Of a stretch of DNA of 64,000 nucleotides, positions 40,594 to 58,993 are shown piece after piece (positions within the stretch are counted from its first letter, which is position 1; each line of letters begins with the position of its first letter). The translations under genes were made by a program, and so were the position numbers. The stretch is from Actinomycetota bacterium (GTDB lineage Bacteria; Actinomycetota; Thermoleophilia; RBG-16-64-13): positions 981-64,980 of the forward strand of contig JAAYCW010000201.1 of NCBI GenBank assembly GCA_012729575.1. The letters are read 5' to 3'. The notes beneath the pieces are model-generated. The model saw only the letters and a program-made list of their open reading frames with translations. It searched no databases and was not told the DNA's origin.

Positions 40594-40749
40594 GTGCGTC
40601 GCCCTTTCTGCTCCGGACACTGCTGTGGCCCATGCTTGGACGCGGTTTGCATTCAGATCCTTGTCGACAGCGCGACCCGCTCTGGGCATCTCACTTGACA
40701 GTCTACCGCTCTCGCCGTTCGACGCTCGGATGGTAAACTCCCCGGTGAC

Positions 40750-41928
40750 ATGGAATCTTGGCACGGCCACTTACTGAAAGAACGAGTCGATCAGAGCAGT
40801 CTGCTGATCCAGGGCAATCGTGCCTGCGTGTTGGGCGCCCTTGACGCCGGAGTCCGGTTCTACGCGGGGTATCCGATAACTCCCAGTTCGGAGATCATGG
40901 AAGCCATGGCCGTCGAACTGCCGCGGATCGGGGGCGTTTTCGTACAGATGGAGGATGAGATCGCCTCCATATGTGCGTGCATCGGCGCCTCTCTCACCGG
41001 CGAGGTCGCGATGACCGCCACCTCCGGCCCGGGTTTCTCTCTGATGCAGGAGGCTCTCGGGTACGCGATCATGGTGCAGGCTCCGCTGGTTGTTGTTGAC
41101 GTTATGCGGTCGGGGCCTTCTACCGGCCGGCCCACCGCTCCCTCGCAGGCCGACGTGATGCAGGCGCGTTGGGGTACGCACGGCGATCATCCGGCCATCG
41201 TGCTTGCAGCATCGAATGTGGCGGATATGTACCGGCTCACAATGGCCGCGGTTCGTTTCGCCCTACGATTCCGGACGCCTGTAACGCTGTTGGCCGACCA
41301 GGTAGTCGGCCAGATGCGCGAGAGTTTTTCGGAGGAGCTTCTTGGTCGCTACCGTCTGACCAGCGGTGATTTCGATTTCACGCCTGGGTACCTTCATCCT
41401 GATCTGGCCCGAGAGGTACATCTGCCGCACGTTCTGGGTTCTGGAGAGTATCCGCACGTGACCGGGCTGTTTCACGACGAGACCGGGTTCCCAACGAATG
41501 ATCCGGAGAAGACCGACAAGTTCTTGCGTGAGCTTTACAACAAGGTAGCTCACCACCGAGACGAGCTCTGCCTCTACGATGTCAAGAACGAGGGCAGGGG
41601 TCGGGTGTGTATCGTGGCCTACGGTTCCTGCGCTCGGAGCGCTCGGGCGGCATGGAGGCTGGCCGATCAGGAAGGGTTGTCGGTCGAGGTTCTCCACCTG
41701 TACACGTTGTTCCCGTTGCCTGTGGAGATCGTTCAGAAGGTCGCTCGACGGGTGGAATTTATGATCATCCCCGAACTCAACCTGGGCCAGTACGCTCACG
41801 AGGTCCGCAAGATGGCCGAGCAGTGGACCACGGTCATCGGCATTGGCAAGACCGACGGCACTCTCATCACCCCACGCGAGATCCTCGATCGGATTGCCGA
41901 GCTGGTCGGTAAGTACGAAAGCGTGTAA
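40750..41928 (+). CDS. korA: 2-oxoacid:ferredoxin oxidoreductase alpha subunit
   Basis: OFOR alpha N-terminus LIQGNRACVLGALDAGVRFYAGYPITPSSEI. 392 aa. Confidence 0.85.
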   Translation: MESWHGHLLKERVDQSSLLIQGNRACVLGALDAGVRFYAGYPITPSSEIMEAMAVELPRIGGVFVQMEDEIASICACIGASLTGEVAMTATSGPGFSLMQEALGYAIMVQAPLVVVDVMRSGPSTGRPTAPSQADVMQARWGTHGDHPAIVLAASNVADMYRLTMAAVRFALRFRTPVTLLADQVVGQMRESFSEELLGRYRLTSGDFDFTPGYLHPDLAREVHLPHVLGSGEYPHVTGLFHDETGFPTNDPEKTDKFLRELYNKVAHHRDELCLYDVKNEGRGRVCIVAYGSCARSARAAWRLADQEGLSVEVLHLYTLFPLPVEIVQKVARRVEFMIIPELNLGQYAHEVRKMAEQWTTVIGIGKTDGTLITPREILDRIAELVGKYESV

Positions 41929-41931
41929 TCG

Positions 41932-42786
41932 ATGGCGCTTGAGATAGAACAGTTCCTTCGGACAGATCGGTTGCCCCATATCTGGTGTCCGGGATGCGGG
42001 TTGGGCATTATCACCGGCGCCTTTTTGCGGGCGATCCTGGATCTGGGTCTCACTCGGGAGAACACTGTGGTGGTGAGTGGGATCGGCTGCTCGAGCCGAG
42101 CGGCCGGTTATCTGAATCTGAACACGGTACACACCATCCACGGCCGGGCGCTTCCGGTTGCCACCGGCATCAAGATGGCCCGTCCTGACTTCACTGTGAT
42201 TGTGCTGACCGGTGACGGCGATGGCGCAGCCATCGGGGGTAACCATCTGATTCACTCCTGCCGGCGCAACATCGATCTCACCTGCATCCTCTTCAACAAC
42301 CAGATCTACGGCATGACCGGCGGCCAGTTCTCGCCGACCATGGATCCGGGGGGTAACGCGACGACCGCTCCCTATGGCCAACTGGAGCCTTCGTTCGACT
42401 TGTGCCGTTTGGCTGAAGCGGCGGGCGCCACTTTCGTGGCGCGAGGCACCGCGGCCGGCGTTCGCCAGATTGAGAAGATCATCAAGCAGGGCGTCCAACA
42501 TCCGGGATTCGCCTTCATCGAGGCCGTGGTTCCTTGTCCCACTGAATATGGGAGACGCAACAAACCGGCGAAAGCCGTGGACATGCTCGAAGAGGAACGG
42601 AAACGGTCGATATCTGTGAGTAAGGCGGCCAAGTTGTCGCCCGAGGAACTCGAGGGCAAGATCGTGACCGGAGTGCTCTTCCAGGATGTCGAGAGGCGTG
42701 AGTTCCAGAGCACTTACGCAGAGACCGTGGCTCGCGTGAAAGACGCCGAACTGGCGCGACGGTTGGCGGAAGGGGCCGGAGAATGA
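41932..42786 (+). CDS. korB: 2-oxoacid:ferredoxin oxidoreductase beta subunit (TPP-binding)
   Basis: WCPGCG near the N-terminus. TPP motif GDGDGAAIGGNHLIH. Confidence 0.85.
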   Translation: MALEIEQFLRTDRLPHIWCPGCGLGIITGAFLRAILDLGLTRENTVVVSGIGCSSRAAGYLNLNTVHTIHGRALPVATGIKMARPDFTVIVLTGDGDGAAIGGNHLIHSCRRNIDLTCILFNNQIYGMTGGQFSPTMDPGGNATTAPYGQLEPSFDLCRLAEAAGATFVARGTAAGVRQIEKIIKQGVQHPGFAFIEAVVPCPTEYGRRNKPAKAVDMLEEERKRSISVSKAAKLSPEELEGKIVTGVLFQDVERREFQSTYAETVARVKDAELARRLAEGAGE

Positions 42787-43463
42787 GCATGGTGGACGGA
42801 ACAACACCATCTCCGATCGGGTCTGATCAAGCCCCCACAAGTACCCCTTCATCTGCTCAATGGGAAGGGTTGCTGTTCGGCCGGGAGTATGTGGAGGTTC
42901 GGTTCGGCGGCAGCGGTGGTCAGGGAGTGATACTCATGGGTGTGATCCTGGCGACGGCAGCCACGCTCGACCATCATCGCGTTGTGCAGACGGAATCGTA
43001 TGGACCTGAAGCCCGGGGAGGATATAGCCGCAGCGACGTGATCATCTCCAGTGAACCAGTGGACTACCCTGAACTGGAAAGGGCCCATCTCTTGGTGGCT
43101 CTCTCCCAGTTGGCAGCGTCGCAGTACATCGGCACTCTGCGCAATGACGGTATCTTCATATACGATTTAGAGAAAGTCGTTGAGCCCCCGGTCTTCAAGG
43201 GGATCACTTTCGCTATCCCCTTCACCGAGATGGCCCTAGAGGAGACCGGTAGGACGCAGACGACGAACATCCTGGCACTGGGAGCGGTGACGAGTATCAC
43301 CGGACTCGTATCTGTGGAGTCACTGCGGAAAGCGGTGACGGGCAGAGTACCGGCCGGCACTGAGGAGATCAACAACCGAGCGCTGATCCGGGGCCTGGGT
43401 ATCGACCCTGCGGAGTGGCAGAACGGCGGCGCCAGGGCCTACGGCTTGCCGGTAGATCGGTAG
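42783..43463 (+). CDS. 2-oxoacid:ferredoxin oxidoreductase gamma subunit
   Basis: POR/KOR gamma-family sequence (GSGGQGVILMGVILATAA). 4-bp overlap with korB. Confidence 0.75.
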   Translation: MSMVDGTTPSPIGSDQAPTSTPSSAQWEGLLFGREYVEVRFGGSGGQGVILMGVILATAATLDHHRVVQTESYGPEARGGYSRSDVIISSEPVDYPELERAHLLVALSQLAASQYIGTLRNDGIFIYDLEKVVEPPVFKGITFAIPFTEMALEETGRTQTTNILALGAVTSITGLVSVESLRKAVTGRVPAGTEEINNRALIRGLGIDPAEWQNGGARAYGLPVDR

Positions 43464-43472
43464 GGTATACGT

Positions 43473-45311
43473 ATGCTTGTAGCCGGCATCGATGTTGGGG
43501 CTAAGAACGTCCACGCAGTCCTGATCAAGGACGGGGATGTAGTTGCCAGAGCGGAGGTCGCCTCCGGTTTTGACCACGACGAGTCGGCGGAGCGAGGCTT
43601 GCGGGAGGCGGTCCGACTTGCCGGCGTCACGTGGGAAGACATCGATTCGGTGGCCGTCACCGGCGCTGGTCGCAAAGCGCTTGCCTATGCCGCAGAAAAG
43701 CCTACTGAGATAGCAGCTGATGCACGGGGAGCCTTCGCTCTCTTTCCAGAGGCTCGTACTGTCGTCGATGTGGGGGCTGATGAAGCGAGGGCCATCCGAT
43801 TGGAGCCCGGCGGCAAGGTGGTCGATTTTGCGGTCAACGAGAAATGTGCAGCGGGAGCGGGCGCTTTTGTGGAGGCCATGAGCCGGGCGACCGAGATGTC
43901 GCTGGAGGATTTTGCCGAGGCGTCCCTCCACTCCACCGAGACCATACCTATGAACGCCCAGTGTACGGTGTTCGCGGAGTCGGAGGTGGTGAGTCTCATC
44001 CATGCGAACACGCCCTCGACGAACATCGCGCGGGCTGTTCATGATGCCATGGCCAGCCGAGTGTCAGCCATGGTCCGGCGCATCGGCGTAGAAGATCCAG
44101 TAGTCCTAGGTGGTGGGACAGCTCTCAACGTGGGATTCGTCAACTCCCTGTCGGAGGCTCTTGGCGGAGTGCATATTCACGTACTGCCGGATCCGGGCTT
44201 CCTTGGGGCCCTTGGGGCTGGGCTCATCGCTTGGGAATCGGCACAAAATCCAGAGCGTTCTCAGCCCGACCGACCCCCGAGGCCACAAAGCTCACAACGC
44301 GGCACTGCTACCGCAAGAGACGGGGCGGTTCTCGCAGACGGACTCGTTGAAAGAGAAACGGCTGGAGAGAGAGACTTCTGGCGATGGAGCGAGAGGTCTT
44401 GGTTCGATGGCGATTTGGACCCGCAAGAAATATCGGTCTTGACCGTAGGAGTGGATGTGGGGTCGGTCAGCTCCCAGGCCGTCATCCTCGGGGATGGGAG
44501 ACTGCTTTCGTACTTCTCCACTCGTACCGGCTCGTCCAGCCCGGATAGCGCCGTGAAGGCGTTCCGGGGGGCGAGCGAACCCTTAGGGATCACTCTGGAC
44601 GATGTGAGCTATGCGGTTGGTACCGGATACGGGCGTGTCAACGTGCCTTTCGCGGATCGCACCCTCACGGAGATAGCGTGCCATGCCCGCGGAGCCAATT
44701 TCATGGCCGGTCCCAGTGTCCGTACCATACTTGACATGGGAGGGCAGGACTGCAAGGTGATCCGCTGTGATGAGCGGGGCAAGGTGCTCAACTTCATCAT
44801 GAACGACAAGTGTGCAGCGGGGACCGGCAGAGGTATGGAGGTCATCGCCGATGTTCTGGGAGTCCCTGTAGAGGATATTGGGCGCCGCTCTTTCGAGACA
44901 GACGAAGAACCACCCCCGGTCAGCAATGTGTGTGTAGTGTTCGCGAAATCAGAAGCTACTTCCCTGCTCAGGGCGGGGTGGAGCGTGAATCGTGTGCTCG
45001 CAGCTTATTGCGCCGCCATGGCGCAGCGCGTGGCCGGGCTTATAGAGCGTATGCAGGTGGAGCGAGAGTTCTTCATCACGGGTGGGATCGCCAAGAATAT
45101 CGGAGTGACCCGTCGTATAGAACGGTTGATCGGTGTGGAAGCCCTGAAGCTCCCAGAGGATTCGATGCTCGACCCGCAGATGGCGGGAGCCTTGGGTGCG
45201 GCGCTTTTCGCTCATTCGCTGTCTCGCAAAGCAGAGAGAGAAAGAAGTACCGGCGTAGCGGCGCCCCGTAAGGCGACGGCTGCTGACGCCAAGGTGACTC
45301 CAGCTGAGTAG
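43473..45311 (+). CDS. tandem-domain BadF/BadG/BcrA/BcrD(HgdC)-type ATPase (CoA-substrate-specific enzyme activase family)
   Basis: Two ASKHA/activase domains, each carrying the NEKCAAGAG / NDKCAAGTGRGMEV Cys motif. N-terminal GIDVGAKNVHAV and second-domain VGVDVGSVSSQAV phosphate-1 loops. Confidence 0.75.
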   Translation: MLVAGIDVGAKNVHAVLIKDGDVVARAEVASGFDHDESAERGLREAVRLAGVTWEDIDSVAVTGAGRKALAYAAEKPTEIAADARGAFALFPEARTVVDVGADEARAIRLEPGGKVVDFAVNEKCAAGAGAFVEAMSRATEMSLEDFAEASLHSTETIPMNAQCTVFAESEVVSLIHANTPSTNIARAVHDAMASRVSAMVRRIGVEDPVVLGGGTALNVGFVNSLSEALGGVHIHVLPDPGFLGALGAGLIAWESAQNPERSQPDRPPRPQSSQRGTATARDGAVLADGLVERETAGERDFWRWSERSWFDGDLDPQEISVLTVGVDVGSVSSQAVILGDGRLLSYFSTRTGSSSPDSAVKAFRGASEPLGITLDDVSYAVGTGYGRVNVPFADRTLTEIACHARGANFMAGPSVRTILDMGGQDCKVIRCDERGKVLNFIMNDKCAAGTGRGMEVIADVLGVPVEDIGRRSFETDEEPPPVSNVCVVFAKSEATSLLRAGWSVNRVLAAYCAAMAQRVAGLIERMQVEREFFITGGIAKNIGVTRRIERLIGVEALKLPEDSMLDPQMAGALGAALFAHSLSRKAERERSTGVAAPRKATAADAKVTPAE

Positions 45312-46263: not shown

Positions 46264-47478
46264 CTATAGACTCCGGGCCACGTGAGTGGTCAGCTCACCC
46301 AGCCGGTAGGTGTAGCTACCCATCTCGTTGTCATACCAGCCGAAGACCTTCACGTGGGTGAGCGGCACGCGATGCTCTCCGCAGATTCCCGGGAGCTTCA
46401 GGTCGACGAAGCCGGTGCGGGTGTGGGTCTCGATCCCCTCGATTACAACGGCCGCGTCCTCACCAAGCATGTCGGCCGACACGTTCTGTTCGTCACTGTA
46501 CTTGACTAATCCGCGCGCCTCTCCCTCAGCCGCTTCTCTGTAGATGGCGTTGATGTCGTCACGATCGACCGAGACGGTTCCATCCGGCGATGCTTCGGTC
46601 TGGAAGGTCACATTGAGGATGATCAGGCTCACACTTGCTGTAGGTATGCGGACTGAATCGGCCATGAAGCCTATCTGCGCGATCTCAGGCATGACCTGCT
46701 CGAGAGCTTTGGCAGCGTTGGTCGAAGTGATGATGACGTTGTTCAGTCCCGACCGGGTCTTACGAAGATCGCTTGCTCCCGAGCCGGGGACGGCATCGAG
46801 GACGGGTTGGCTGTTTGTGACCGCATGGACCGTGCTCATGCCGGCAGTGAGCATGTTGCGGGTGAGGTCGCGGGCGAGGAGGGGCCGCATCATATGGGCG
46901 AGGGCTGTAGTGGTACAGGAGGCGGCAGATACGAGTTTGTGCTTCCCCGGGTCGAAATCGAGGTGGTTGATCCCATGGATCAGGATGGCCGCGTCTTCCG
47001 GCGTCGGCACCCCTTTGACTTTGCTCTTGAAGGGAGCACTCAACAAGACGGCCCGCGCACCGGCTGCCAAGTGGCCTCGGACCGAGCCTTTGGCGGAATC
47101 GACCTCTGCATGTGGGTCGAGGAACTTGCCGGTGCAGTCCACCACCAGATTGACACCATGATCGCGCCAGGGGATATCTTTCGGATTCCTGACTTCCCTG
47201 AGGAAGACGATCTCCCTGCCGTGGGCGCGGAGCACGCCGGTTGACTCGTCGATCACCTTGACGTCGGGCCGGCCTCTGTGTCCGTCTAGATAGCGGTGCA
47301 GCGGCCCGTAGGTGCTGTCTTTGGCAACGTACTCTGCTATGGATTCAAGTGATGTTCCCACCTGACGGCCGACGTTGACCACAAACCGATCGAACCCCTC
47401 GTGGCCAAGGTGGTACCAGAGGGTCAATTTGCCGATCCGGCCTAGACCATTGATGCCCAACGTTCTTGGAGCGCTCAT
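46264..47478 (-). CDS. glyceraldehyde-3-phosphate dehydrogenase family protein, atypical long form (404 aa)
   Basis: NAD fold GINGLGRIGK. Catalytic Cys context ASCTTTALAH. STNAAKAL and C-terminal WYDNEMGSY match GAPDH. Contains insertions relative to the 335-aa canonical enzyme. Confidence 0.7.
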   Translation of the reverse strand: MSAPRTLGINGLGRIGKLTLWYHLGHEGFDRFVVNVGRQVGTSLESIAEYVAKDSTYGPLHRYLDGHRGRPDVKVIDESTGVLRAHGREIVFLREVRNPKDIPWRDHGVNLVVDCTGKFLDPHAEVDSAKGSVRGHLAAGARAVLLSAPFKSKVKGVPTPEDAAILIHGINHLDFDPGKHKLVSAASCTTTALAHMMRPLLARDLTRNMLTAGMSTVHAVTNSQPVLDAVPGSGASDLRKTRSGLNNVIITSTNAAKALEQVMPEIAQIGFMADSVRIPTASVSLIILNVTFQTEASPDGTVSVDRDDINAIYREAAEGEARGLVKYSDEQNVSADMLGEDAAVVIEGIETHTRTGFVDLKLPGICGEHRVPLTHVKVFGWYDNEMGSYTYRLGELTTHVARSL

Positions 47479-47539: not shown

Positions 47540-50500
47540 TCATGGCGACGACGAGGTACGCTTCCGCATGGGTACGCAGCCAAGGAAAATGTTGCCCGTA
47601 CGGCCGTCTACCGACAGCCAGTCCCCCGCTCTTATCTCAGTGCCGGCCAAACGAGCTATTCCCGGTTGTTCCAGCACCTCCAAGGCGCGGCAATCAACAA
47701 CGGCCGTCTTACCGAGACGTTTAGCGGTGACGGCGGCGTGTGACGTGGATCCACCTCGGGCGGTGAGCAGCCCGGAGACCCTAGTGATCATAGCAATGTC
47801 CTCGGGGACTGTGTCGGGCCGTAGGAGTACGATCCTGTCCTCTGGTGCCTCCTCAATGAGGCGGTCGATTTGCTCCATATTGATGGCCACCCGGCCGCAG
47901 AAGGCCCCGCCGGCTACCCCCATCCCCACTGCGACAGGGGGTCCGTACCTGGGCGATGACACGTCGAAGAAGGGGGCGTCCGCTTGTGGCTCGTGCACCA
48001 TGGCGCGCTTCTGGAGGATGTAGAGATCGTCTCCCGAAGCCGACTCAAAGGTGAACTCTATCTCCTGAGGGTCATGCTCTCGCTTCGCCACGAGGTCACG
48101 GGCTACTTCGAGTAGTCGTCCGTAGACCTGCGGGTAGTCTTTTTCCAGTGAGTGCTCTATTCCCTGGTACGTTGGGCTACCAAGCCGCTGGGCCTCCGAG
48201 ACGGGCCACGGGAACACCAAACCCCCGACTAGGTCCTCTCCCTGGCTGCGGACGGTGAAGTCTCCGAAAAGGCGGACCTGGCTGCTGTAGGGCTCTAGTG
48301 GGTTGCGGGTGAATGTCACCCCGGACCCTGACTCGCGGCTGAGGTTTCCGAACACCATCTGTTGGACAACCACGGCCGTGCCCCATTCTGGGGCTACGCC
48401 CAAGTATCGACGGTACAGCCTGGCTTCAGGCGAATCCCATGAATCGAGGACCTTCTGTACGCAGCCCACGACTTGGCGGAAGGGATCGTCCATGAACCTC
48501 ACCCCCATGTCCTTTGCCCGGGCCTTGTACGCGAAAGCCAGTTCTCGCATATGCTCAGGCGTGAAGTCGAGTTTGCGCTCAATCCCGTACCGAATCTTGA
48601 ACTCGTTCATCATGGCGTCAAAGATGTCGCGGTCGATGCCCGCGGACATGGCCCAAGACTGTAGGAATCGCCGGTACGAGTCCCAGGCCGCCCAGTCGAA
48701 GCCCTGTTTACGAGAGAGAGCCTCCGCCAGCTTGTCGTTCAACCCCACGTCGACGAAGGTCGACATGAGCCCCGGCATGGAGATCGCTGCGCCGGAACGG
48801 ATGGAGAGAGTGAGCAAACGCGCAGGGTCGCCAAGCCGGAGTCCCGTCTCCTTCTCCAGCCGGGAGATGGCCGCTCGGATTCTCTCAAGAGTGTCATCGA
48901 ATAGAGGCCGGTACTTCATCGCGGGTCGGGCGCTGAATAGCTCGGTCGCGAGGATGAAACCGCGCGGAACCTGGTGGCCGTAAGAGGCCATCTGCTTGAG
49001 TCCGAGGCCCTTAAAACCCAGCGTCATCTGGTCGTCGACACTAGGTCTGGGTTCGTGGATGGGTGAGATGAGACGCTCCGGGTCGTAGTTCATCATGCGG
49101 GTGAGAGCGTGATTGCTCAGGCGCCCGGTGAGCGTGGAGATCTGCCGAAGAGCCGCCGATACATAGCGGTCGAGAGCCTGCATACCCAGTGCCGATACCA
49201 GCACCTCGCGCAGTACCATCTCGGATACGGCATCCAGTGACATGCCGCGTATCTCGCACTGTCGGGGATCGTGCTCGAGCACGGTATGTAGCACTTGGTC
49301 ATGGCTCAAGATCGAAGTGCGGGAAAGCTCGGTCACCGATCCGACTATGAACTGGAACACATTCCTGTATTGATGGAATGTGAAGTTGTAACTGCTCAGG
49401 CCGGATTCGAGTAGACGGAGGTTCGCCGCCAAGCTCCGGGAGTCGACGCCGTCGGCGGCCAGAGCGCGAACGAACCGGTGGATCTTGGCCGCCATGCGCC
49501 GCAGCGTGTCCCGGGTGACGTAGGAGTAGGTACTGTCCGCGACCAGGTCCTCGAGGAGACGCGCTACCAGTCTTTCCACCCGGAAGGATAGTCCGAGCGC
49601 GTCGAACTTCGGTTCCGTGTAGGTGCCGTACATCGACGGGATCCCGGCTGCGATGTGGCGTTTCTGGTATATGTTCTCGACTGCCGAGGAGGGCGCGGGG
49701 TCCAGGATGATCGTCTGCAGGTTTTCGAGGACCTTGAGGGCGGCATCGAGCAGACGCTCTCGCGTGGACTCCCGGGGCCTCTTCTGCCATGCAGTGAGAG
49801 CCTTGGTGAAGGCGCTACGGGTCGCCGAGTCAAGTCGCAGATGCTGCTTTACTGCCGCTCCGACGTCAGCCGCCGACAGAGAGTACTTCTGCGCGAGCAG
49901 TTGGTGCGTGCGGACCATGAGGCTGACCCGCCTGGGCCCCTGGGAATCCGAGTCCTTGCCCGGCGGAAGTTGGGCAAGTAGTTCTTCAAGGGTCGCGACC
50001 TGCATTCTGATGAGACGATCGAGGAACGCCTCTACGTCTGGGGATGGTGTCTCCACGGCGGCGGTCTGGGGAGTCCGGCCCTCCATCCTGGCCAGTAGAC
50101 TCATCAGGACCTCGTGCGGCTCCTCGGCCCATTTCTGTTCTCTCTTCACAGCAGCCAGCGTGTTCGCCGACAAGTACGAGGCGAGCCCGGAAGGGTCGAG
50201 AGTGGCCCAGTAGGTGAGGACGGCGCGGGAAAACGCGACAAGCCGGTTGGACGACTCTGCGTGAGATTGCTTGCGGAGGAAGTGCATGAGGGTATCTTGC
50301 CGGCCGCAGATCTCGTCCAGCTCGGTCGAGACGGCCCGGAGTTCACCCTCGGCACCGACATCGTTGAAGTAGACCGGGAAGGCCCGCAGAAGTTGCTTCG
50401 CGACAAAGTAAATGGGTCGAATGTCGGCGTTGAGGAAGCGGGTCACATCCCGTTGAAAGAGGTCGGTGTCGGCGATGTAGACGCCTCCCAGGCGCAACTG

Positions 50501-51739
50501 TACGTTGAGCGCAGCCGCAAGCCTCTCGTAAAGGGCAGGGTTGGCCTCGATGATGTGCATCCAACACCTGATCTTAGGCAGGTGAAACGGGTTGACGACG
50601 GTCTCCCAGTCGTCGGTAGCGCCTTGGATGTCAGGGTACTGGAAGCGCCAGGAGAGGACGTCCTCTATCAAGTGGTCGGCTGCGGCCACGTTACCGGCTT
50701 CGCCGATGGCCACGCCGATGGCCTCATAACACAGGAAGCGCATGAGCAGGAATTGATTGTCCCGCGCTCGGAAGAACCGGGTCAGGCGGCTGAGGATCCG
50801 GTCGACATCCATGTGCCTCTCCGGCTTCATGAGCTGGCGCACGACGGCAAGCAGGTCGACCATCACTTCGTTCTGGCGATAGCCAAGAGTGTCATCCTTG
50901 AGGAAATACAGACAGACTGCGAAGCGGTCCTCGAGATTGTCGATTCGGAACACTTGGTTGATCGCTCCATCGAGGATCTCTGAGAAAGTGGGGAGCTCGG
51001 GGGACAGAAGCTCATCCGCTGCAACTGCCTCAGCTCTCTTTACTAGATCGGCCACCCTCTTGGGCGCCAGATCGGTGAAGCTGGAGGCTACAGCGTCACG
51101 GTCGGTGAGCTCGGCCTCTCCAGAAAGAGCCCACTCAGGTATGGGTAGGCGCTCGGCGACCCTTCGGTAGCCGAGGAGAAGAAGTGAACGGTAGAGCTCC
51201 GAGTAGGCGGTCGAGAGGACCGGACGCCGACCGGCGGCTTCGACAAGGCCCCGCAGCAGTGTGTCTCGCTCCAGAGCCGCAAGTGGTTGGAGCGGTACGA
51301 ATCGGGCTAGGCAGTCTGCGATATTCAGCAGAGGCTCATCGTATTCTTCCGAATGAGGACCGGTCAGGGCGGCCGTACACCAAGCGAGAAGTTGTCTCAG
51401 CAAGAGAGAAGCCTGTTGGGAGCTGAGGGGTGTGTCCAGCAGGTCCAGCATCAGTTCTGAGAGCAGAGTGAAGGCCTCGCGCCGATTCTCCGAGCGCTCG
51501 AAGTAGGTCCAATTCCTCAGCAGGATCGTCTGAAAACCATCGATCAGCAGATCCGCGTTGCGATAGCTGTGGAAGTATTCGGCCAAAGTCTCAGCCAGGG
51601 GCACGCGCACACCGTGGTATCCCTCCACCGCCTTCAGCAGGGGCTTGTAGCGATCAGGGATCACGGCCGGCTGAGCGGTCCCGGGGAGATTGGCCCTGAG
51701 AGCGTCTGAGTCGACCAGCGTTTCGATCGGGTCCATCAT
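47540..51739 (-). CDS. 1399-aa multidomain protein: ~860-aa N-terminal region of unknown function, then a PPDK/PEP-synthase-type ATP-grasp nucleotide-binding domain, then a PEP-utilising-enzyme phosphohistidine swivel domain; no PEP/pyruvate TIM barrel
   Basis: PPDK_N-like segment starts at about residue 880 (GFKGLGLKQMASYGHQVPRGFILATELF ... RSGAAISMPGLMSTFVDVGLND). Mobile His domain (LLTARGGSTSHAAVTAKRLGKTAVV) at the C-terminus. The N-terminal 860 aa are Leu/Ala-rich helical with no recognisable motif. Confidence 0.7.
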   Translation of the reverse strand: MMDPIETLVDSDALRANLPGTAQPAVIPDRYKPLLKAVEGYHGVRVPLAETLAEYFHSYRNADLLIDGFQTILLRNWTYFERSENRREAFTLLSELMLDLLDTPLSSQQASLLLRQLLAWCTAALTGPHSEEYDEPLLNIADCLARFVPLQPLAALERDTLLRGLVEAAGRRPVLSTAYSELYRSLLLLGYRRVAERLPIPEWALSGEAELTDRDAVASSFTDLAPKRVADLVKRAEAVAADELLSPELPTFSEILDGAINQVFRIDNLEDRFAVCLYFLKDDTLGYRQNEVMVDLLAVVRQLMKPERHMDVDRILSRLTRFFRARDNQFLLMRFLCYEAIGVAIGEAGNVAAADHLIEDVLSWRFQYPDIQGATDDWETVVNPFHLPKIRCWMHIIEANPALYERLAAALNVQLRLGGVYIADTDLFQRDVTRFLNADIRPIYFVAKQLLRAFPVYFNDVGAEGELRAVSTELDEICGRQDTLMHFLRKQSHAESSNRLVAFSRAVLTYWATLDPSGLASYLSANTLAAVKREQKWAEEPHEVLMSLLARMEGRTPQTAAVETPSPDVEAFLDRLIRMQVATLEELLAQLPPGKDSDSQGPRRVSLMVRTHQLLAQKYSLSAADVGAAVKQHLRLDSATRSAFTKALTAWQKRPRESTRERLLDAALKVLENLQTIILDPAPSSAVENIYQKRHIAAGIPSMYGTYTEPKFDALGLSFRVERLVARLLEDLVADSTYSYVTRDTLRRMAAKIHRFVRALAADGVDSRSLAANLRLLESGLSSYNFTFHQYRNVFQFIVGSVTELSRTSILSHDQVLHTVLEHDPRQCEIRGMSLDAVSEMVLREVLVSALGMQALDRYVSAALRQISTLTGRLSNHALTRMMNYDPERLISPIHEPRPSVDDQMTLGFKGLGLKQMASYGHQVPRGFILATELFSARPAMKYRPLFDDTLERIRAAISRLEKETGLRLGDPARLLTLSIRSGAAISMPGLMSTFVDVGLNDKLAEALSRKQGFDWAAWDSYRRFLQSWAMSAGIDRDIFDAMMNEFKIRYGIERKLDFTPEHMRELAFAYKARAKDMGVRFMDDPFRQVVGCVQKVLDSWDSPEARLYRRYLGVAPEWGTAVVVQQMVFGNLSRESGSGVTFTRNPLEPYSSQVRLFGDFTVRSQGEDLVGGLVFPWPVSEAQRLGSPTYQGIEHSLEKDYPQVYGRLLEVARDLVAKREHDPQEIEFTFESASGDDLYILQKRAMVHEPQADAPFFDVSSPRYGPPVAVGMGVAGGAFCGRVAINMEQIDRLIEEAPEDRIVLLRPDTVPEDIAMITRVSGLLTARGGSTSHAAVTAKRLGKTAVVDCRALEVLEQPGIARLAGTEIRAGDWLSVDGRTGNIFLGCVPMRKRTSSSP

Positions 51740-53064
51740 TCTTCCTGCCGTTCGAGTGCGGACTCTGTGTCCTGCTCCTCCTCCAACTCGCTGCTGCCCT
51801 CTGCCTCCTCATCAAGACGGGTGAGGAGCACCCGGCAGATGCGCATACCGTCGACCTCGAGCACCTTAGCGTGGAAGTTGCCCACCTGAGCCTCGTCCCC
51901 CACTTGGGGACGGCGCTGCAACTGTTCAAAAACCCGGCCTCCCAGAGTTGGGAAGCCCTCCTCGGGGATCTGCAGACCCAGAGTTTCCTCCAAGTACTCG
52001 ATACGGGCGGCGCCGTCCACCGAATAACTGCCGTTGTCGTTGCTCTCCACCTCGGGCGCTTCCAAGTCGAATTCGTCTTGAACCTCACCGATGAGTTCCT
52101 CCACGACATCTTGGATGGTCACGATCCCGGCGGTACCGCCGTGCTCGTCCACGACGATTATGAGTGGGGTACGGGTACTCTGGAAGCGCTGGAGAGCCAC
52201 CTCGATGTTGGATGTCTCCGCGATGAAGCCGATGGGGCGCAGCAGGCGGCGCAGAGCGGCGTCGCGGGGAGCCCGGTATAGGTCTTTGACGTGCACGTAC
52301 CCGACGATGTTGTCCACATCCTCTTCGTATACGGGATAGCGTGTATGGTTGGTCTCTGCGATGTCGTCAATAGCTTGGGCGACCGTGAGCGATGTGGGCA
52401 GGGCAGCCATCTCGGTCCGGGGCACCATGATCTCGGTGACCGTTTGGTCACCGAATGTCAAAGCGCGGCGCATGAGCGTCTGCTCCACCTCGTCAATGTG
52501 TCCCACTTCCTGGCTGGCTTCTATGATCATCCGCAGCTCCTCCTCGGAATGGGCGAGCTCGCGTTCTGAGGCGGGCTTGATATGGAAGATCCTGAGAATG
52601 CCCGCCGCCGATGCGTACATGAGCCAGGTGATGGGCTTCGTGATCAGGTAGACCCAGCGTAGGGGCATGGCGACGAACAGTGCAGACCCCTCCGCCTTAC
52701 GGATCGCCACGGACTTGGGCACCAGCTCTCCGAAGATGATGGTAAGGAAGGTTACGAGAACGAAGGCGATCGCGGCCGCGGCCACAGGGTTCATGACGAT
52801 GCCGAAGACATCTGAAAACGCCTCGGCTCCCAGCCAGCCCAATCCCATACTGGCGACTGTGACCCCCAGCTGGGTCGCCGAGAGATACGCGTCGAGGTGG
52901 TTGACGATGTGGTTGGCTACCCGTGCCCGTTTGTTGCCGGTCGCTGAGAGTTCGGCCATCCGTGTGTCGCGGACTTTGACGATGGCGAACTCAGCCAGAA
53001 CGAAGAATGCGTTGACCATCACCAGCAGAAAGACGCCGATGATTTTGACGGCAGTCGGGTTCAT
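51736..53064 (-). CDS. CNNM/CorC-HlyC family transporter (DUF21 TM domain, CBS pair, CorC_HlyC)
   Basis: Four N-terminal TM helices (DUF21). Tandem CBS domains. C-terminal transporter-associated domain. ATGA overlap with the downstream 1399-aa gene. Confidence 0.85.
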   Translation of the reverse strand: MNPTAVKIIGVFLLVMVNAFFVLAEFAIVKVRDTRMAELSATGNKRARVANHIVNHLDAYLSATQLGVTVASMGLGWLGAEAFSDVFGIVMNPVAAAAIAFVLVTFLTIIFGELVPKSVAIRKAEGSALFVAMPLRWVYLITKPITWLMYASAAGILRIFHIKPASERELAHSEEELRMIIEASQEVGHIDEVEQTLMRRALTFGDQTVTEIMVPRTEMAALPTSLTVAQAIDDIAETNHTRYPVYEEDVDNIVGYVHVKDLYRAPRDAALRRLLRPIGFIAETSNIEVALQRFQSTRTPLIIVVDEHGGTAGIVTIQDVVEELIGEVQDEFDLEAPEVESNDNGSYSVDGAARIEYLEETLGLQIPEEGFPTLGGRVFEQLQRRPQVGDEAQVGNFHAKVLEVDGMRICRVLLTRLDEEAEGSSELEEEQDTESALERQEE

Positions 53065-53285: not shown

Positions 53286-54248
53286 TCAGCGTTTACGCGC
53301 AGAGTCCTCCAGCACGGGCTCAAGCAGCCCCCACGCTTCCTCAGCCGTCTCCACGAACGAGAAGATCTCCAGATCGCCCGGACTGATCACGCCTTCTTCG
53401 ACCAGGGCGGAGAAGTTGATGATCCGCTCCCAGTAGTCCCGACTGAAGAGGAGAACCGGGATGGGCTTGATCTTGCGAGTCTGGATGAGCGTGAGACCCT
53501 CGAATAACTCGTCGAGAGTCCCGAATCCCCCGGGGAAGACCACCAGGGCGATTGCGCGCATCATGAAGTGCATCTTGCGGAGAGCGAAGTAGTGGAAGTT
53601 GAAACACAGATAGGGGGTGATGTAAGGGTTAGGTCTCTGTTCAAAAGGCAGGACGATATTGAGGCCGACCGTCTCGGCTCCCACGTCGTCCGCGCCTCTG
53701 TTGGCGGCTTCCATAATGCCGGGGCCACCTCCGGTGACCACAACCGCTCGGTATGGGCCGTGTGCGGAACTCCGGGAACCAGCCTTGGCGGATGGTTGGA
53801 GTGATCCCGATATCATCTGCCCTAGTCGCCGGGCCTCCTCGTAATAGCTGCTCTTGGCGACGAGAGCTCGTGCGGTCCGCGCTCGGTCAGCAGCCGCCGG
53901 GTCGGCCGGGTTCTGAGCCGCCGCCTGTTCCGCCTCGGCCAAGAAAGCGGTGGCGTCCTCGGGAGCGGGGATGCGGGCACTGCCGAACATGACCACGGTA
54001 GCCCCGATGCCGCGGTCTCTCTGCAGGATCTCAGGTTTCAGATACTCCAGCTGCAGACGGGAGGCGCGAAGCTCGTCTCGCAACAAGAAATCAGGATCGG
54101 CGAATCCAAGTTTATAGGCGGCTGAACTGGTCTGCGGCGTCTCCGGATCGAGATCCGAATGCCGTCTGTCCTCCTCGGCGGAGGGGAAAGTCCTCGCGGG
54201 CTGTACCTTCTTTGAAGCTCGCTTTCGACCACGAAGTTGTTCTGCCAT
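53286..54248 (-). CDS. LOG-family (TIGR00730) nucleotide 5'-monophosphate nucleosidase, long form
   Basis: LOG motifs GGGPGIMEAANRGA and PGGFGTLDELFE. N-terminal extension of about 100 aa. Confidence 0.8.
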   Translation of the reverse strand: MAEQLRGRKRASKKVQPARTFPSAEEDRRHSDLDPETPQTSSAAYKLGFADPDFLLRDELRASRLQLEYLKPEILQRDRGIGATVVMFGSARIPAPEDATAFLAEAEQAAAQNPADPAAADRARTARALVAKSSYYEEARRLGQMISGSLQPSAKAGSRSSAHGPYRAVVVTGGGPGIMEAANRGADDVGAETVGLNIVLPFEQRPNPYITPYLCFNFHYFALRKMHFMMRAIALVVFPGGFGTLDELFEGLTLIQTRKIKPIPVLLFSRDYWERIINFSALVEEGVISPGDLEIFSFVETAEEAWGLLEPVLEDSARKR

Positions 54249-54273
54249 GCGCGTCTCTTTCTTTGAGGCGGTG

Positions 54274-55620
54274 CTATTCCTTGCGGAGATCGATCACGTG
54301 CTGGGTCTTCCCTTCGCTTCTCTCGATAGCCCCGGGCTCCTTGAAGACTACGCCCACATTGATGCCTATGATGTCCTTCACGTTCTTCTGGATGCTTTGC
54401 TTGAGCCCGACCAAGGTCTCGTGCTCGGTGAAGGTGGTGACGTCGTCTGTTGACAGGATGCCCTCGGACACCTCCTTGTAGAGGCCGGGGGAAATCTCCA
54501 CTTGGATCTCTAGATTGTCCAAAGCCCCTTTGCGGCTGACGACCAGACGATAGTGCGGTTCCACGCGGGGGGACATGAGCAGCACCGACTCCACTTGGCT
54601 GGGGAAGACGTTGACCCCCCGGATGATGAGCATGTCGTCCGTGCGCCCGGCGATGCGATCCATGCGCGTATTTGTCCGACCACAGACGCAGGGCTCCGAA
54701 TTCAGCCTTGTGATATCGCCGGTGCGGTAGCGGATGAGCGGAAACGCTTCTTTGGTAAGCGTGGTGATGACCAGTTCGCCCCATTCGCCCTCTGGAAGGA
54801 CCTCGGCCGTGTCGGGATCGATTATTTCCGGCAGGAAATGATCTTCGTTTAGATGTAAGCCGTCCTGGGCTTCGACGCACTCGCACGATACCCCCGGACC
54901 GATGATCTCGGAGAGACCGTAGATGTCGCATGCTTTGATGTTCCACTTGCGTTCGATGTCTCTGCGCATGGCTTCAGACCAGGGTTCTGCACCGAAGACG
55001 CCCACCCTGAGAGGGAACCTGGTGACGTCCAGTTTGAGTTGCTGAGCGACATCCCACACATAGAGGGCGAAACTCGGTGTGCAGCAGAGAACGGTGGTGC
55101 CGAAGTCCTGCATGAGCATCAACTGGCGCTGCGTGTTGCTCCCCGAGATGGGGATCACTGAAGCGCCTATGAGCTCGGCGGCATAGTGCGCGCCCAGCCC
55201 TCCCGTGAACAGACCATAACCGTACGCGACTTGGACTATGTCGTCCTCGGTGGTTCCCGCGCAGGCGAGCGCCCGCGCACAGGCGTTCGCCCACATGGCT
55301 ACGTCGTTGCGCGTGTAGCCGACAGTGGTCGGCTTGCCCGTGGTGCCTGAGGAGGCGTGGATCCGGACGACTTCCTTCATCGGAGTGGCGAAGAGCCCGA
55401 ACGGATACTGGTCGCGCAGGTTGTACTTCCGGGTCATGGGCAGACGCGCGAGGTCTTCGACTCCTCGGATCTGCTCAGGCCCGATGGCGACCTTGTCAAA
55501 GAGGTCACGGTAGAATGGAACTCGATCGTAGACTCGTTTGACCAGGGCCTTCAGGCGCTCTGACTGGAGTTGCCTGAGATCCTCCCGGTTCATACACTCG
55601 TGCTCGCGATCGAAGATCAT
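54274..55620 (-). CDS. paaK: phenylacetate--CoA ligase family protein (PaaK-like adenylate-forming enzyme)
   Basis: N-terminus [23 protein letters not shown] is typical of PaaK. AMP-binding core SSGTTGKPT. 448 aa. Confidence 0.85.
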
Positions 55621-56673: not shown

Positions 56674-58482
56674 GTGATCGTGGACTTCTATCAGGGCAAG
56701 GTACTGCGGATCGATCTAACTCACGGCATCGCTCAGACCGAGCCGCTCAACCCGGAGTGGGCTGAGCGCTACATCGGCGGTAAAGGCCTGCTCCTGCGGT
56801 ACATGTGGGAGTACGTCACGCCGCGGGTCGATCCGTGGGCTCCCGAGAACCCAATCTTTCTCGTCACGGGACCTTTCGCCGGCACCAACGTCAGTACGGC
56901 CTCTCGTCTGGTAGTGGGGGCGAAGAGTCCGGTGACGGGCATCTTGGATGACAGCTATGTAGGGGGGTCGTTCGCTCCCGAGATGAAGTTCGCGGGATAC
57001 GATCTCCTCATCATCTCGGGCAAAGCTCCGGAACCTACCGTGATTTGGGTCAAAGATGGCAAGGTTGAGTTCCTGCCGGCTCGGGACAAGTACTGGGGTC
57101 TCAAGACCTCGGAAATCGAGGAGGCGTTGCGGGAAGATCTCGACGAGAACGCCAAGGTGCTTTCTATCGGGCCGGCGGGCGAGAACCTGATCCCCTGGGC
57201 GTGCTTGAGCACCGATCAGTTCCACAAAGCGGGTCGGGGGGGGCACGGAGCTTTGTTCGGCTCCAAGAACCTGAAAGCCGTCGCTATCCGTGGCACCGGG
57301 TCGGTCAGGGTCGGCGACGCACGCGGGTTTCTGGCCGATATCGAGCGGATTCACCGGGAACATGTTCTCACCGACTTCAATCTCTGGGCTAACGAGGAGG
57401 GTACTCCCGTCTTGGTCGACCCGGTGAACGGAGCGGGGGCTCTGCCCACTCGTAATTGGTCCGCAGGGAGTTTCGAAGGGATCGACGGTATCAACTCCGA
57501 TGCCTTCCAGAGCGTGAAGGTGGCTAATCGAGCGTGCTACCAGTGTGCCCTGGGGTGCCGGCAGGTCCACGTGGCAGGTGGAGTCAAGAGCGAAGGCCCC
57601 GAGTTCGAGACGATCGCCCTCTGCGGTTCCAACTGCGGGATAGGTGACCTGGAAGCCCTGATGCGCTTCAACAGTGAATGTGACGAATGGGGTTTGGACA
57701 CCATCTCCTCGGGATCGGTCGTGGGACTGGCCATGGGTATGGCCGAGGAAGGCATCGCCGATTTCGGACTGCGGTTCGGCGAGGTGGAGGCCTATGTCGC
57801 TGCACCCGCTCTGATCGCACAACGGGAGGGGATCGGAGTCGAGCTCGCCTTGGGGGCACGCGCGCTGGCCTCGAAATACGGGGTACCGGATATGGCCATG
57901 GAGGTGAAGAATCTCGAACTGCCCGGGTACGATCCTCGCGGTGCTTTTGGCATGAGTATCAGCTACGCGACTTCCGACCGCGGAGGTTGCCATATGAGGG
58001 CGTATCCGATCGCGGACGAGGTGCTGGAAGGCACTCGGCCGGCGGATAGTCTGGAGGGGAAGGCGGAGCAGGTCATCAAAGGCAACGTAGCCAATGGTTT
58101 CATCGGGCAGAACTTCAGCTCGGTGAAATTTAGCGGCATCTGGTGCGATTTTTGGGCGGTCGACCCGGACCAACTGAGCCAGATGTTCAGCCATCTGTTC
58201 AAGCGGAGGTTCACTGAGGACGAAGTCATGCTCACCGGCGAGCGCATCTGGAATCTTGGGAGGTTGCTCAATCTGCGCGAGGGTGTGGAGCCCGACACTC
58301 TTCCCCGCCGGCTCTATGAGGCGGAGTACGCATTCGCCGACGGCCCATCGGCGGGAAAGGCCATTGGAGAAGAGGCGTTCAGAGAAGCTCTCCGAGAGTA
58401 CTACCGGCTGCGCGGCTGGGATGAGACGGGAAGGCCCACGGAGGAGAAGCTGGCTGAGTTGGGAGTGGACGTCCGCCTCTGA
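56674..58482 (+). CDS. aor: aldehyde:ferredoxin oxidoreductase (tungstopterin AOR family)
   Basis: AOR_N and AOR_C architecture. Conserved sequence (GGKGLLLRYMWEY, CYQCALGC, GGCHMRAYP). GTG start with a GAAGGAG Shine-Dalgarno. 602 aa. Confidence 0.9.
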   Translation: MIVDFYQGKVLRIDLTHGIAQTEPLNPEWAERYIGGKGLLLRYMWEYVTPRVDPWAPENPIFLVTGPFAGTNVSTASRLVVGAKSPVTGILDDSYVGGSFAPEMKFAGYDLLIISGKAPEPTVIWVKDGKVEFLPARDKYWGLKTSEIEEALREDLDENAKVLSIGPAGENLIPWACLSTDQFHKAGRGGHGALFGSKNLKAVAIRGTGSVRVGDARGFLADIERIHREHVLTDFNLWANEEGTPVLVDPVNGAGALPTRNWSAGSFEGIDGINSDAFQSVKVANRACYQCALGCRQVHVAGGVKSEGPEFETIALCGSNCGIGDLEALMRFNSECDEWGLDTISSGSVVGLAMGMAEEGIADFGLRFGEVEAYVAAPALIAQREGIGVELALGARALASKYGVPDMAMEVKNLELPGYDPRGAFGMSISYATSDRGGCHMRAYPIADEVLEGTRPADSLEGKAEQVIKGNVANGFIGQNFSSVKFSGIWCDFWAVDPDQLSQMFSHLFKRRFTEDEVMLTGERIWNLGRLLNLREGVEPDTLPRRLYEAEYAFADGPSAGKAIGEEAFREALREYYRLRGWDETGRPTEEKLAELGVDVRL

Positions 58483-58513
58483 GTCCCCTCGATCCACCAA
58501 GAAAGGATGCCGC

Positions 58514-58993
58514 ATGCCTTACGTGATGATAGACAACAAGAAATGCACCGGTTGCCGCATGTGCGAGTTGGCCTGCTCGGCCTGGCATGAGGGAGCGTAC
58601 CGGCCGTCTGTTGCGCGCCTTCACGTTGACGTCGAGCCCACGAGTGCCCATGTTCGGGGTCATACCTGTCTTCAGACGGCCTGCGCTAAGTGTGAGGAGG
58701 CCTGTCCTGTGGAGGCCATAGAGCGCCACCCCATCACTGTTAGGGCGGTGGGCCTGGAGCCCGTTGAGGGCTACGTCTTGAAAGTGAACGAGGATCTCTG
58801 CACCGGGTGTGGCGTCTGCTACGACGTCTGCCCGCAAGGTGTCATCCATGAGCATCCCGAGCGCAAGGTGGCCTTCAAGTGCGACCTGTGCGATGGCGAG
58901 CCCCAGTGTGTTGCTTTCTGCCAGAACCCTCACGTCTTGGCGATCGACGTGCGGCAGAGCAAGGCGGAGAAGGCGGCCGCCGCGCCCGCATAG
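58514..58993 (+). CDS. 4Fe-4S ferredoxin-domain protein (probable AOR electron partner)
   Basis: CTGCRMCELAC, CAKCEEACP, CTGCGVCYDVCP and CDLCDGEPQCVAFC cluster motifs. ATG at 58514 with a GAAAGGA Shine-Dalgarno. Confidence 0.8.
   Translation: MPYVMIDNKKCTGCRMCELACSAWHEGAYRPSVARLHVDVEPTSAHVRGHTCLQTACAKCEEACPVEAIERHPITVRAVGLEPVEGYVLKVNEDLCTGCGVCYDVCPQGVIHEHPERKVAFKCDLCDGEPQCVAFCQNPHVLAIDVRQSKAEKAAAAPA

Follow-up and report, generated by a model that had tools for sequence, protein, structure and literature searches.

A barrel-less relative of pyruvate phosphate dikinase with an all-alpha N-terminal domain without known relatives and a conserved glyceraldehyde-3-phosphate dehydrogenase gene partner

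In pyruvate phosphate dikinase (PPDK), as represented by the solved enzymes of Clostridium symbiosum (1KBL) and Flaveria (5JVN), an ATP-grasp nucleotide-binding domain is followed by a swivelling domain that carries the catalytic histidine and then by a C-terminal TIM barrel for pyruvate and phosphoenolpyruvate (PEP). The ATP-grasp domain and the swivel His are retained, with the barrel swapped for a substrate domain, in rifampin phosphotransferase (RPH), the prodiginine ligases PigC and HapC, and the aromatic kinases HpeHI and MarK; the plant glucan, water dikinases GWD1 and PWD place a large N-terminal substrate-recognition region before a C-terminal PPDK-like module in a protein of about 1400 aa. 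Here we analyse a gene encoding a barrel-less dikinase of 1399 aa, located at 47540..51739 on the minus strand of a 64,000-nucleotide stretch of DNA (the window) from an Actinomycetota bacterium (GCA_012729575.1, contig JAAYCW010000201.1, positions 981 to 64,980, forward strand). Its product keeps the domain order of PPDK, ATP-grasp and then swivel His, together with the residues of the ATP, Mg and phosphate (Pi) sites and the catalytic His.

That this protein is an ATP-driven swivelling-His phosphotransferase without the acceptor barrel of PPDK, functionally coupled to a phosphorylating paralogue of glyceraldehyde-3-phosphate dehydrogenase (GAPDH), is well supported by its domain structure and by the gene linkage described below. 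Full-text literature searches returned no description of the barrel-less dikinase family or of its pairing with this GAPDH, which we call the long GAPDH.

A PPDK-derived catalytic half and a new N-terminal domain

The gene was delimited from its open reading frame (ORF) and translation, from full-length homologues, and from domain assignment with Pfam, NCBIfam and the PDB. A novel N-terminal domain comes first, followed by the PPDK-type nucleotide-binding domain and then by the His swivel domain. The ATP-grasp domain covers residues ~900-1250 (47990..49042, minus strand), as judged from the Pfam PPDK_N match at residues 952-1249 (E 6.5e-20) and from alignment to 1KBL and 5JVN. The phosphohistidine swivel domain covers residues ~1270-1390 (47570..47932, minus strand), with a match to the PEP-utilizers mobile domain at residues 1301-1382 (E 1.8e-17) and, by alignment, a counterpart in PPDK residues 380-513; its motif GGSTSHAAV contains the catalytic His1334 (codon 47738-47740). 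In comparison with the PDB, residues 902-1393 correspond to residues ~17-513 of the C. symbiosum and Flaveria enzymes (E about 1e-74), with 30-33% identity over ~490 residues, and the match of the dikinase half to solved PPDKs reaches 258.9 bits (E 8e-76), spanning both the nucleotide-binding and the His domains. Residues K22, R92, D321, E323, Q335 and R337 of C. symbiosum PPDK correspond to K910, R981, E1226, E1228, Q1243 and R1245 of the window protein, and His455 to H1334. Conservation of the swivel His and of the ATP-grasp catalytic residues had been named as decisive when the gene was first singled out, and all of these positions are invariant in an alignment of 66 sequences that reaches down to ~27% identity across the N-terminal 905 residues. 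Judged by these residues, the dikinase half looks CATALYTICALLY competent and, because it resembles PPDK far more than PEP synthase, PPDK-like chemistry involving Pi and pyrophosphate (PPi), with release of AMP, is probable.

Structure prediction agrees with the alignments. The AlphaFold2 (AF2) model of residues 200-1399 has a mean predicted local distance difference test score (pLDDT) of 89.7 and a predicted template modelling score (pTM) of 0.79, and its C-terminal half superposes on 1KBL and 1DIK at 2.6-3.1 Å over about 540 columns (1KBL: 2.6 Å, 543 columns). The fit is to the conformer in which the His domain is docked on the ATP-grasp domain, the PEP-facing conformers giving only 10-15 Å. 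The protein stops nine residues past the swivel domain, at the equivalent of PPDK residue ~513; since residues 902-1393 match PPDK ~17-513, it ends at the point from which, in PPDK, the linker leads on to the PEP/pyruvate TIM barrel. Pfam scans detected the barrel family PF02896 neither in the window protein nor among the 18 distant members examined (0 of 18), and no barrel appears in the AF2 models of residues 1-905 and 200-1399. Against the NCBIfam PPDK model TIGR01828 the protein scores 335.6 bits, the cut-off being 843.45, with a match limited to the N-terminal third of the profile and the His domain; its best stretch spans profile positions 15-336 of 865.

The N-terminal domain, residues 1 to ~880, matches no Pfam (E<=0.1) or NCBIfam family in the window protein, and a more permissive Pfam scan (E<=5) of the 18 distant members, one by one, returned nothing specific. 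Compared with PDB sequences by phmmer and with a profile of the 66 sequences, it has no real homologue, the matches being designed helical repeats with E>=4e-4. The AF2 model of residues 1-905, built from the 66-sequence alignment, is of high confidence (pLDDT 90.6, pTM 0.84) and consists almost wholly of alpha-helices, some 45 in number, the one exception being a beta-hairpin. A Foldseek search of the PDB with this domain found nothing below E 1e-3, the best match (E 2.4e-3, TM <=0.19) being to karyopherin-type solenoids. By these comparisons the domain has no known relative. The original prediction, a 1399-aa ORF joining an unrecognised N-terminus to an ATP-grasp and a swivel domain with no barrel, was upheld in every element by Pfam, NCBIfam and PDB alignment; separate profile searches of its two parts placed the N-terminal one in no known PEP/pyruvate-binding or other domain of Pfam, NCBIfam or the PDB, and the AlphaFold and Foldseek comparison left it without a specific PDB relative.

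Conservation within this domain is focused on residues ~340-880. The first 340 residues (50720..51739, minus strand) form a variable part, helical in the AF2 model with pLDDT >90 after residue 30, in which the 66 sequences share a few invariant columns only (A13, G43, E54, H57 and W203). Residues 341-880 (49100..50719, minus strand) form a conserved core, delimited by its invariant columns, that contains most of the invariant polar residues of the domain: H386, D424, E464, R468, D475, R480, R489, K490, H493 and E495, and then K693, R694, H695, S702, Y704, E709, R720, Q790, E840, R844 and D857. The sole hairpin, residues 687-708 (49616..49681, minus strand; strands 687-695 and 700-708 by DSSP on the AF2 model), bears the nearly invariant motif IYxKRHIAAGIPSMYGxYxEPKF, and the further near-invariant motifs GVFIxDTDLFQ, FPVYFNEIGAEGELRxVST and HFLRKQSHxESNN are found in the domain. 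In all, the invariant positions include about 30 polar or charged residues, with Arg, Lys and His well represented. Such a pattern looks more like a ligand or catalytic site than a passive scaffold, and its richness in Arg, Lys and His fits the binding of an anionic phospho-ligand. The N-terminal domain is the obvious candidate for the acceptor site, and its core a putative site for the acceptor or for a partner.

A phmmer search with residues 1-903 against 1.84 billion cluster representatives (E<=1e-3) gave 445 family representatives at 50% clustering. Full-length members measure 1350-1430 aa and are 28-36% identical to the window protein; those checked by Pfam have PPDK_N and PEP-utilizers at the C-terminus and nothing before, except for a few with an N-terminal hemerythrin domain. 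Members were found solely in metagenome-assembled genomes (MAGs) or metagenomes, and all belong to uncultured anaerobes of various phyla. The close relatives come from Thermoleophilia/Gaiellales and other 'Actinomycetota' MAGs, and the distant ones from Syntrophorhabdus/Syntrophorhabdaceae, Syntrophus, other Deltaproteobacteria/Thermodesulfobacteriota, Cloacimonadota, Planctomycetota, Spirochaetota and Chloroflexota/Dehalococcoidia. Databases label them 'pyruvate phosphate dikinase', 'PEP/pyruvate-binding domain-containing protein' or 'hypothetical'. Given the missing barrel and a score far under the TIGR01828 cut-off, the 'PPDK' label is a mis-annotation; annotation pipelines should drop it for this family, and the PEP-pyruvate node is wrongly drawn in metabolic reconstructions that count its members as PPDK.

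Some sequences depart from the usual architecture. In two members (P0186 and P0223) a hemerythrin (HHE) domain replaces the first ~340 residues, the match to the window protein starting at query residues ~341-353, a hint that O2, iron or redox state is sensed by some forms of the enzyme. A protein of 909 aa (P0342) that had the appearance of a stand-alone N-terminal domain was rejected, being one piece of a copy that frameshifts have broken up in a long-read assembly, where neighbouring genes are split too. At this locus (L088:6001-11428) the dikinase gene and its GAPDH neighbour are split into several short ORFs and a nearby major facilitator superfamily (MFS) gene is split as well; the breakage was likely caused by assembly frameshifts, which accounts for the apparent stand-alone domain. 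We also rejected, as a relative through an enolase fusion, a protein of 2145 aa from a Myxococcales MAG (P0345, L089:1184-7621), as only its dikinase half is common to the family. It combines an enolase-like domain, ~900 aa of unknown sequence and a dikinase half 35% identical to that of the family, and is a second barrel-less PPDK module joined to a domain of lower-glycolysis type, found in a single sequence.

The long GAPDH partner and the glycolytic neighbourhood

The gene starting 61 bp downstream of the dikinase gene (46264..47478, minus strand) encodes the long GAPDH, a protein of 404 aa with the Pfam domains Gp_dh_N and Gp_dh_C. The gene context of the dikinase was examined in 80 genome loci by tblastn with the neighbour genes of the window. 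The long GAPDH is adjacent (<=510 bp) in 70 of them, directly downstream on the same strand in 32, as in the window, and directly upstream and divergent in 38; the other 10 comprise 6 loci with too little flank, 2 with the long GAPDH elsewhere in the locus and 2 without it. It lies beside the dikinase gene, convergent or downstream, in 5 of the 6 contexts from distant phyla, the pair of locus L088 being broken up. In one locus (L084) a canonical GAPDH of 332 aa stands on one flank of the dikinase gene and the long GAPDH on the other.

The linkage is also seen from the side of the partner. Metagenome contigs were scanned with peptides specific to the long GAPDH and the dikinase gene was then sought: it lies within 1.4 kb in 35 of the 38 long-GAPDH loci that have >=2.5 kb on both sides, and in about 13 further loci the C-terminal part of the dikinase is cut by the contig end. 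Control loci with canonical GAPDH had the dikinase gene in none of 6 cases. In three loci (L107, L144 and L148) the long GAPDH has 6 kb of flank on each side and no dikinase gene; in the two of these that were examined (L107 and L144) there are only unrelated neighbours, namely MFS, CDP-alcohol phosphatidyltransferase, adenylate cyclase, YceG and MraW genes. It is this gene pair that forms the conserved unit.

Alignments and profile scores show that the long GAPDHs form a coherent, divergent subfamily within the GAPDH superfamily. Its members are 49-73% identical across phyla and ~30% identical to E. coli GapA or to canonical paralogues of the same genome; they measure 402-425 aa and share six subfamily-wide insertions. 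The window protein scores 298.4 bits against the type I GAPDH model TIGR01534 (cut-off 367.2) and is also under the cut-off of NF033735. Aligned with canonical GAPDHs, the subfamily retains Cys149, His176, Thr179, the Arg195 region and Arg231, so that the acyl-phosphate-forming machinery and both anion sites are present. The catalytic residues of the window protein are Cys188 and His218, with Arg277 as the equivalent of Arg231, and the conserved motifs of the subfamily are SAASCTTT, TVHAVTN, DLRKTRS and VRIPT. The NAD-specifying Asp32 is replaced (VVNVGR), and the enzyme probably prefers NADP(H).

The wider neighbourhood belongs to lower glycolysis. In 39 of the 80 loci the dikinase gene heads a same-strand run that continues with canonical gap, a fused pgk-tpi gene and gpmI, while the long GAPDH lies upstream in divergent orientation; these loci form the Thermoleophilia clade of ~65-70% identity (operon loci L019-L042, L045-L047, L050, L052-L057, L059, L060, L062, L064, L070, L074, L075 and L077; for example L075:3119-7690). 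The operon has no PEP/pyruvate enzyme. Its fusion protein measures 652 aa and joins phosphoglycerate kinase (PGK) and triose-phosphate isomerase (TIM) domains; a PGK-TIM fusion is known from Thermotoga. We rejected the dikinase as a substitute for PGK, which is encoded in the same operon in the 39 loci, and as a substitute for PPDK, since the contig of Dehalococcoidia locus L086 carries a canonical three-domain PPDK about 6 kb from the barrel-less gene (L086:15947-16095 and beyond). The recurring lower-glycolysis neighbours point to central carbon metabolism rather than to the making and export of a phosphorylated metabolite, and the pair is probably relevant to central metabolism.

Upstream of the dikinase gene in the window lies a CNNM/CorC-family transporter gene (51736..53064, minus strand; Pfam CNNM, CBS and CorC_HlyC), whose stop overlaps the dikinase start by 4 bp (gaATGAtgg) and which is probably co-transcribed with it. 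The original prediction had taken the transporter, the dikinase and the GAPDH for a three-gene module. The link with the long GAPDH stood, in 70 of 80 loci and reciprocally, and the transporter fell away as a member: it is adjacent to the dikinase gene in 25 of 80 loci, all from the clade of the window (>=71% identity), and is absent from that position in the other Thermoleophilia clade and in the 6 distant-phylum contexts. Its adjacency is lineage-specific synteny.

Beyond the transporter gene, the minus strand at 53286-55620 carries a LOG/'lysine decarboxylase'-family gene and a PaaK-like AMP-binding ligase (AMP-binding_C_2), both kept beside the CNNM gene in the clade of the window. On the other side, the block at 39301-45311 contains a citrate synthase on the minus strand and, on the plus strand, the genes of a 2-oxoacid:ferredoxin oxidoreductase with three subunits (40750-43463) and of a double ATPase of BadF/BcrA type (612 aa; 43473-45311); its synteny is limited to the same clade. 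At 56674-58515 two near-full-length ORFs run on opposite strands, one of 602 aa (plus) and one of 599 aa (minus). The latter has no Pfam match but is probably the real gene of the two, because it has tblastn matches of 45-49% in related loci. Searches for RNA elements, promoters and terminators around the genes gave one sub-threshold snoRNA match and consensus sites at the level of shuffled sequence.

Proposed reaction and competing explanations

We propose that the C-terminal half binds ATP and moves a phosphoryl group onto His1334 of the swivelling carrier domain, and that the phosphohistidine would deliver its phosphate at a site in the core of the N-terminal domain (residues ~340-880), where we place the acceptor because the TIM barrel for pyruvate and PEP is missing. 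The dikinase and a dedicated GAPDH paralogue, phosphorylating and probably NADP(H)-preferring, would act together as the products of a two-gene unit, an acyl phosphate being passed to the GAPDH or received from it. We tentatively favour, as plausible though short of probable, a PPDK-derived His phosphotransferase that works with its dedicated GAPDH in triose-phosphate metabolism and has 3-phosphoglycerate (3-PG) or 1,3-bisphosphoglycerate (1,3-BPG) as its most likely acceptor. These compounds are proposed because the long GAPDH keeps its acyl-phosphate machinery, because the dikinase would handle a high-energy phosphohistidine, and because the two genes travel together across phyla and rearrangements. 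The specific reaction 3-PG + ATP + Pi <-> 1,3-BPG + AMP + PPi is possible, if on the doubtful side. It would be an AMP/PPi-coupled route parallel to PGK, as PPDK and PEP synthase parallel pyruvate kinase. The standard free energies of 1,3-BPG hydrolysis (about -49 kJ/mol) and of AMP + PPi -> ATP (about +46 kJ/mol) would put it near equilibrium, like PPDK. Depending on the level of PPi, it might aid gluconeogenesis past the unfavourable PGK/GAPDH step or harvest PPi in glycolysis.

Several points weigh against this proposal. The pointer to the acceptor comes only from the gene neighbourhood. PGK and canonical GAPDH are already encoded, at times in the same operon, so that on present knowledge a parallel route is not needed. 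In Dehalococcoidia locus L086 the neighbour is a GAPDH of canonical length (339 aa), the sole exception among the distant contexts. A helical domain of 880 aa is very large for a triose-acid site and, as modelled, looks more like a scaffold or protein-binding solenoid; AF2 puts the His domain on the ATP-grasp side, and the model therefore reveals no acceptor site. Finally, the hemerythrin-fused variants hint at sensing or regulation.

The last two considerations lead to a quite unlikely alternative, a regulatory or protein-directed phosphotransferase whose N-terminal domain binds a protein, most plausibly the long GAPDH, or senses a signal, and whose phosphohistidine modifies or controls the partner, as Enzyme I or EI-Ntr does with HPr or NPr. 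It would agree with the resemblance of the N-terminal domain to generic helical-repeat scaffolds only, which are typical protein binders, with the N-terminal hemerythrin sensor domain of some members, with the position of the dikinase gene at the head of the glycolytic operon in 39 loci, and with the strict one-to-one pairing with a special GAPDH paralogue, which fits a physical complex. However, the dense invariant charged motifs of the core are typical of a catalytic or ligand site, the catalytic apparatus of the long GAPDH is complete, and we are not aware of any PPDK-type module, driven by ATP, whose target is a protein. Only slightly less unlikely is a gluconeogenic PEP-forming dikinase with the function of PPDK or PEP synthase, in which the pyruvate/PEP site would have been replaced by the non-homologous N-terminal domain; a GapB-like, NADP-type GAPDH would then be paired with it because both are specific to gluconeogenesis and not because they catalyse consecutive steps. 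The clear derivation of the dikinase half from PPDK is in its favour, as are the loss of Asp32 from the long GAPDH (anabolic NADP-type GAPDHs often lack this NAD-specifying residue), the lack of a PEP/pyruvate enzyme in the adjacent gap-pgk-tpi-gpmI operon, and the 2-oxoacid:ferredoxin oxidoreductase cluster nearby in the window. Yet comparisons by Pfam, PDB profile and Foldseek linked the N-terminal domain neither to the PEP/pyruvate barrel nor to any other fold that binds PEP, at least one genome has a canonical PPDK close by on the same contig, and co-regulation would poorly explain a near-obligate, reciprocal pairing with one GAPDH subfamily in at least five phyla and three orientations.

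The phosphoryl group might instead go to a hydroxyl group, in a dikinase of glyceraldehyde, dihydroxyacetone or glycerate (ATP -> AMP + Pi) that resembles RPH or GWD and feeds the long GAPDH and lower glycolysis. The barrel-less enzymes RPH, GWD, HpeHI and MarK all phosphorylate hydroxyl groups, glyceraldehyde-3-phosphate, the substrate of GAPDH, could be the direct product, and the linkage of the two genes would be accounted for. We consider this decidedly unlikely: the sequence lies much nearer to PPDK than to RPH or the water dikinases, the protein scores 335.6 bits against the PPDK model and 23.9 against that of RPH, with Foldseek E-values of 1e-29 and 1e-4, respectively, two ATP equivalents for a triose kinase reaction have no obvious rationale, and no sugar-, polyol- or aromatic-binding fold was detected. 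Very improbable, to our mind, is the production and export of a phosphorylated metabolite by a module of transporter, dikinase and GAPDH, as first suggested for this locus. The ATGA overlap in the window and the arrangement shared by the 25 related loci speak for it, but the CNNM gene is not beside the dikinase gene in 55 of 80 loci and in 6 of 6 distant-phylum contexts, CNNM/CorC proteins are annotated as transporters of divalent cations or polyamines, and the conserved context is cytosolic lower glycolysis, with canonical gap, the pgk-tpi fusion and gpmI as the recurring neighbours.

All steps of lower glycolysis are taken to be known. The pair, tied as it is to the gap-pgk-tpi-gpmI operon, suggests that a reaction or a point of control at the level of the triose phosphates has gone unrecognised. 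If our preferred reading, phosphoryl transfer between 3-PG and 1,3-BPG, holds, 1,3-BPG would be channelled to an NADP-type GAPDH through a bypass of PGK in energy-limited anaerobes (syntrophs, Cloacimonadota, Thermoleophilia and Dehalococcoidia), where it would drive gluconeogenesis or gain extra ATP from PPi during glycolysis. An AMP/PPi-coupled alternative to PGK would also change the ATP bookkeeping in models of syntrophic and fermentative communities, and the superfamily of swivelling-His dikinases would acquire a new acceptor chemistry along with a new fold.

Comparison with described systems

The dikinase differs from PPDK in that the C-terminal TIM barrel is missing and an unrelated, all-alpha domain of 880 aa precedes the dikinase half. 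PEP synthase (pyruvate, water dikinase) is much further away: the scores are 46.1 bits for a cut-off of 739.75 (TIGR01418) and 54.7 for a cut-off of 598 (NF005057), and the barrel of that enzyme too has no counterpart here. A likeness to RPH had been suggested at the outset, and it holds for the grasp-and-swivel logic without a barrel. It is an analogy only, as the match to the RPH model (NF041857) is 23.9 bits for a cut-off of 999, the Foldseek TM to 5HV1 and 5FBS is 0.15-0.17, and the order of domains differs, the substrate domain of RPH lying between the ATP-grasp and the His domains and that of the window dikinase N-terminal to both. Foldseek matches of the dikinase model to 5HV1 and 9GOJ are weak, and the module resembles PPDK much more than it does HpeI. 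The substrate domains of RPH, PigC, HapC, HpeHI and MarK are unrelated to the N-terminal domain described here, and these enzymes serve resistance, pigment synthesis and aromatic catabolism, in contrast to the central metabolism indicated for the present family.

With the plant enzymes the resemblance is one of size and general layout. GWD has starch-binding modules of family CBM45, whereas the window dikinase has no carbohydrate-binding module (CBM), and in GWD the His domain comes before the nucleotide-binding domain, the reverse of the order seen here. The second-best NCBIfam match is to a truncated mycobacterial 'PPDK' of ~534 aa (NF004531 / PRK05878), which likewise has nucleotide-binding and His domains and no barrel; the score is 258.8 bits for a cut-off of 456, and that family is without the 880-aa N-terminal domain. 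To our knowledge its function is unknown.

The closest parallels to the partner are the gluconeogenic, NADP-dependent GAPDH of the Bacillus subtilis GapB type and the ArsJ-associated GAPDH, which are also specialised type-I paralogues that exist beside a housekeeping enzyme and are tied to one partner or one direction; conservation of the phosphate sites and of the catalytic Cys and His is common to all of them. The long GAPDH differs from them in its six insertions, in its identity of ~30% to canonical enzymes and in its linkage to a barrel-less dikinase. On the evidence of profile scores and domain order, the dikinase shares the superfamily logic of PPDK, PEP synthase, RPH and GWD but fails membership of each of these named families: its catalytic module is of a known kind, and what is new is the putative acceptor domain with its fold and the conserved gene partnership.

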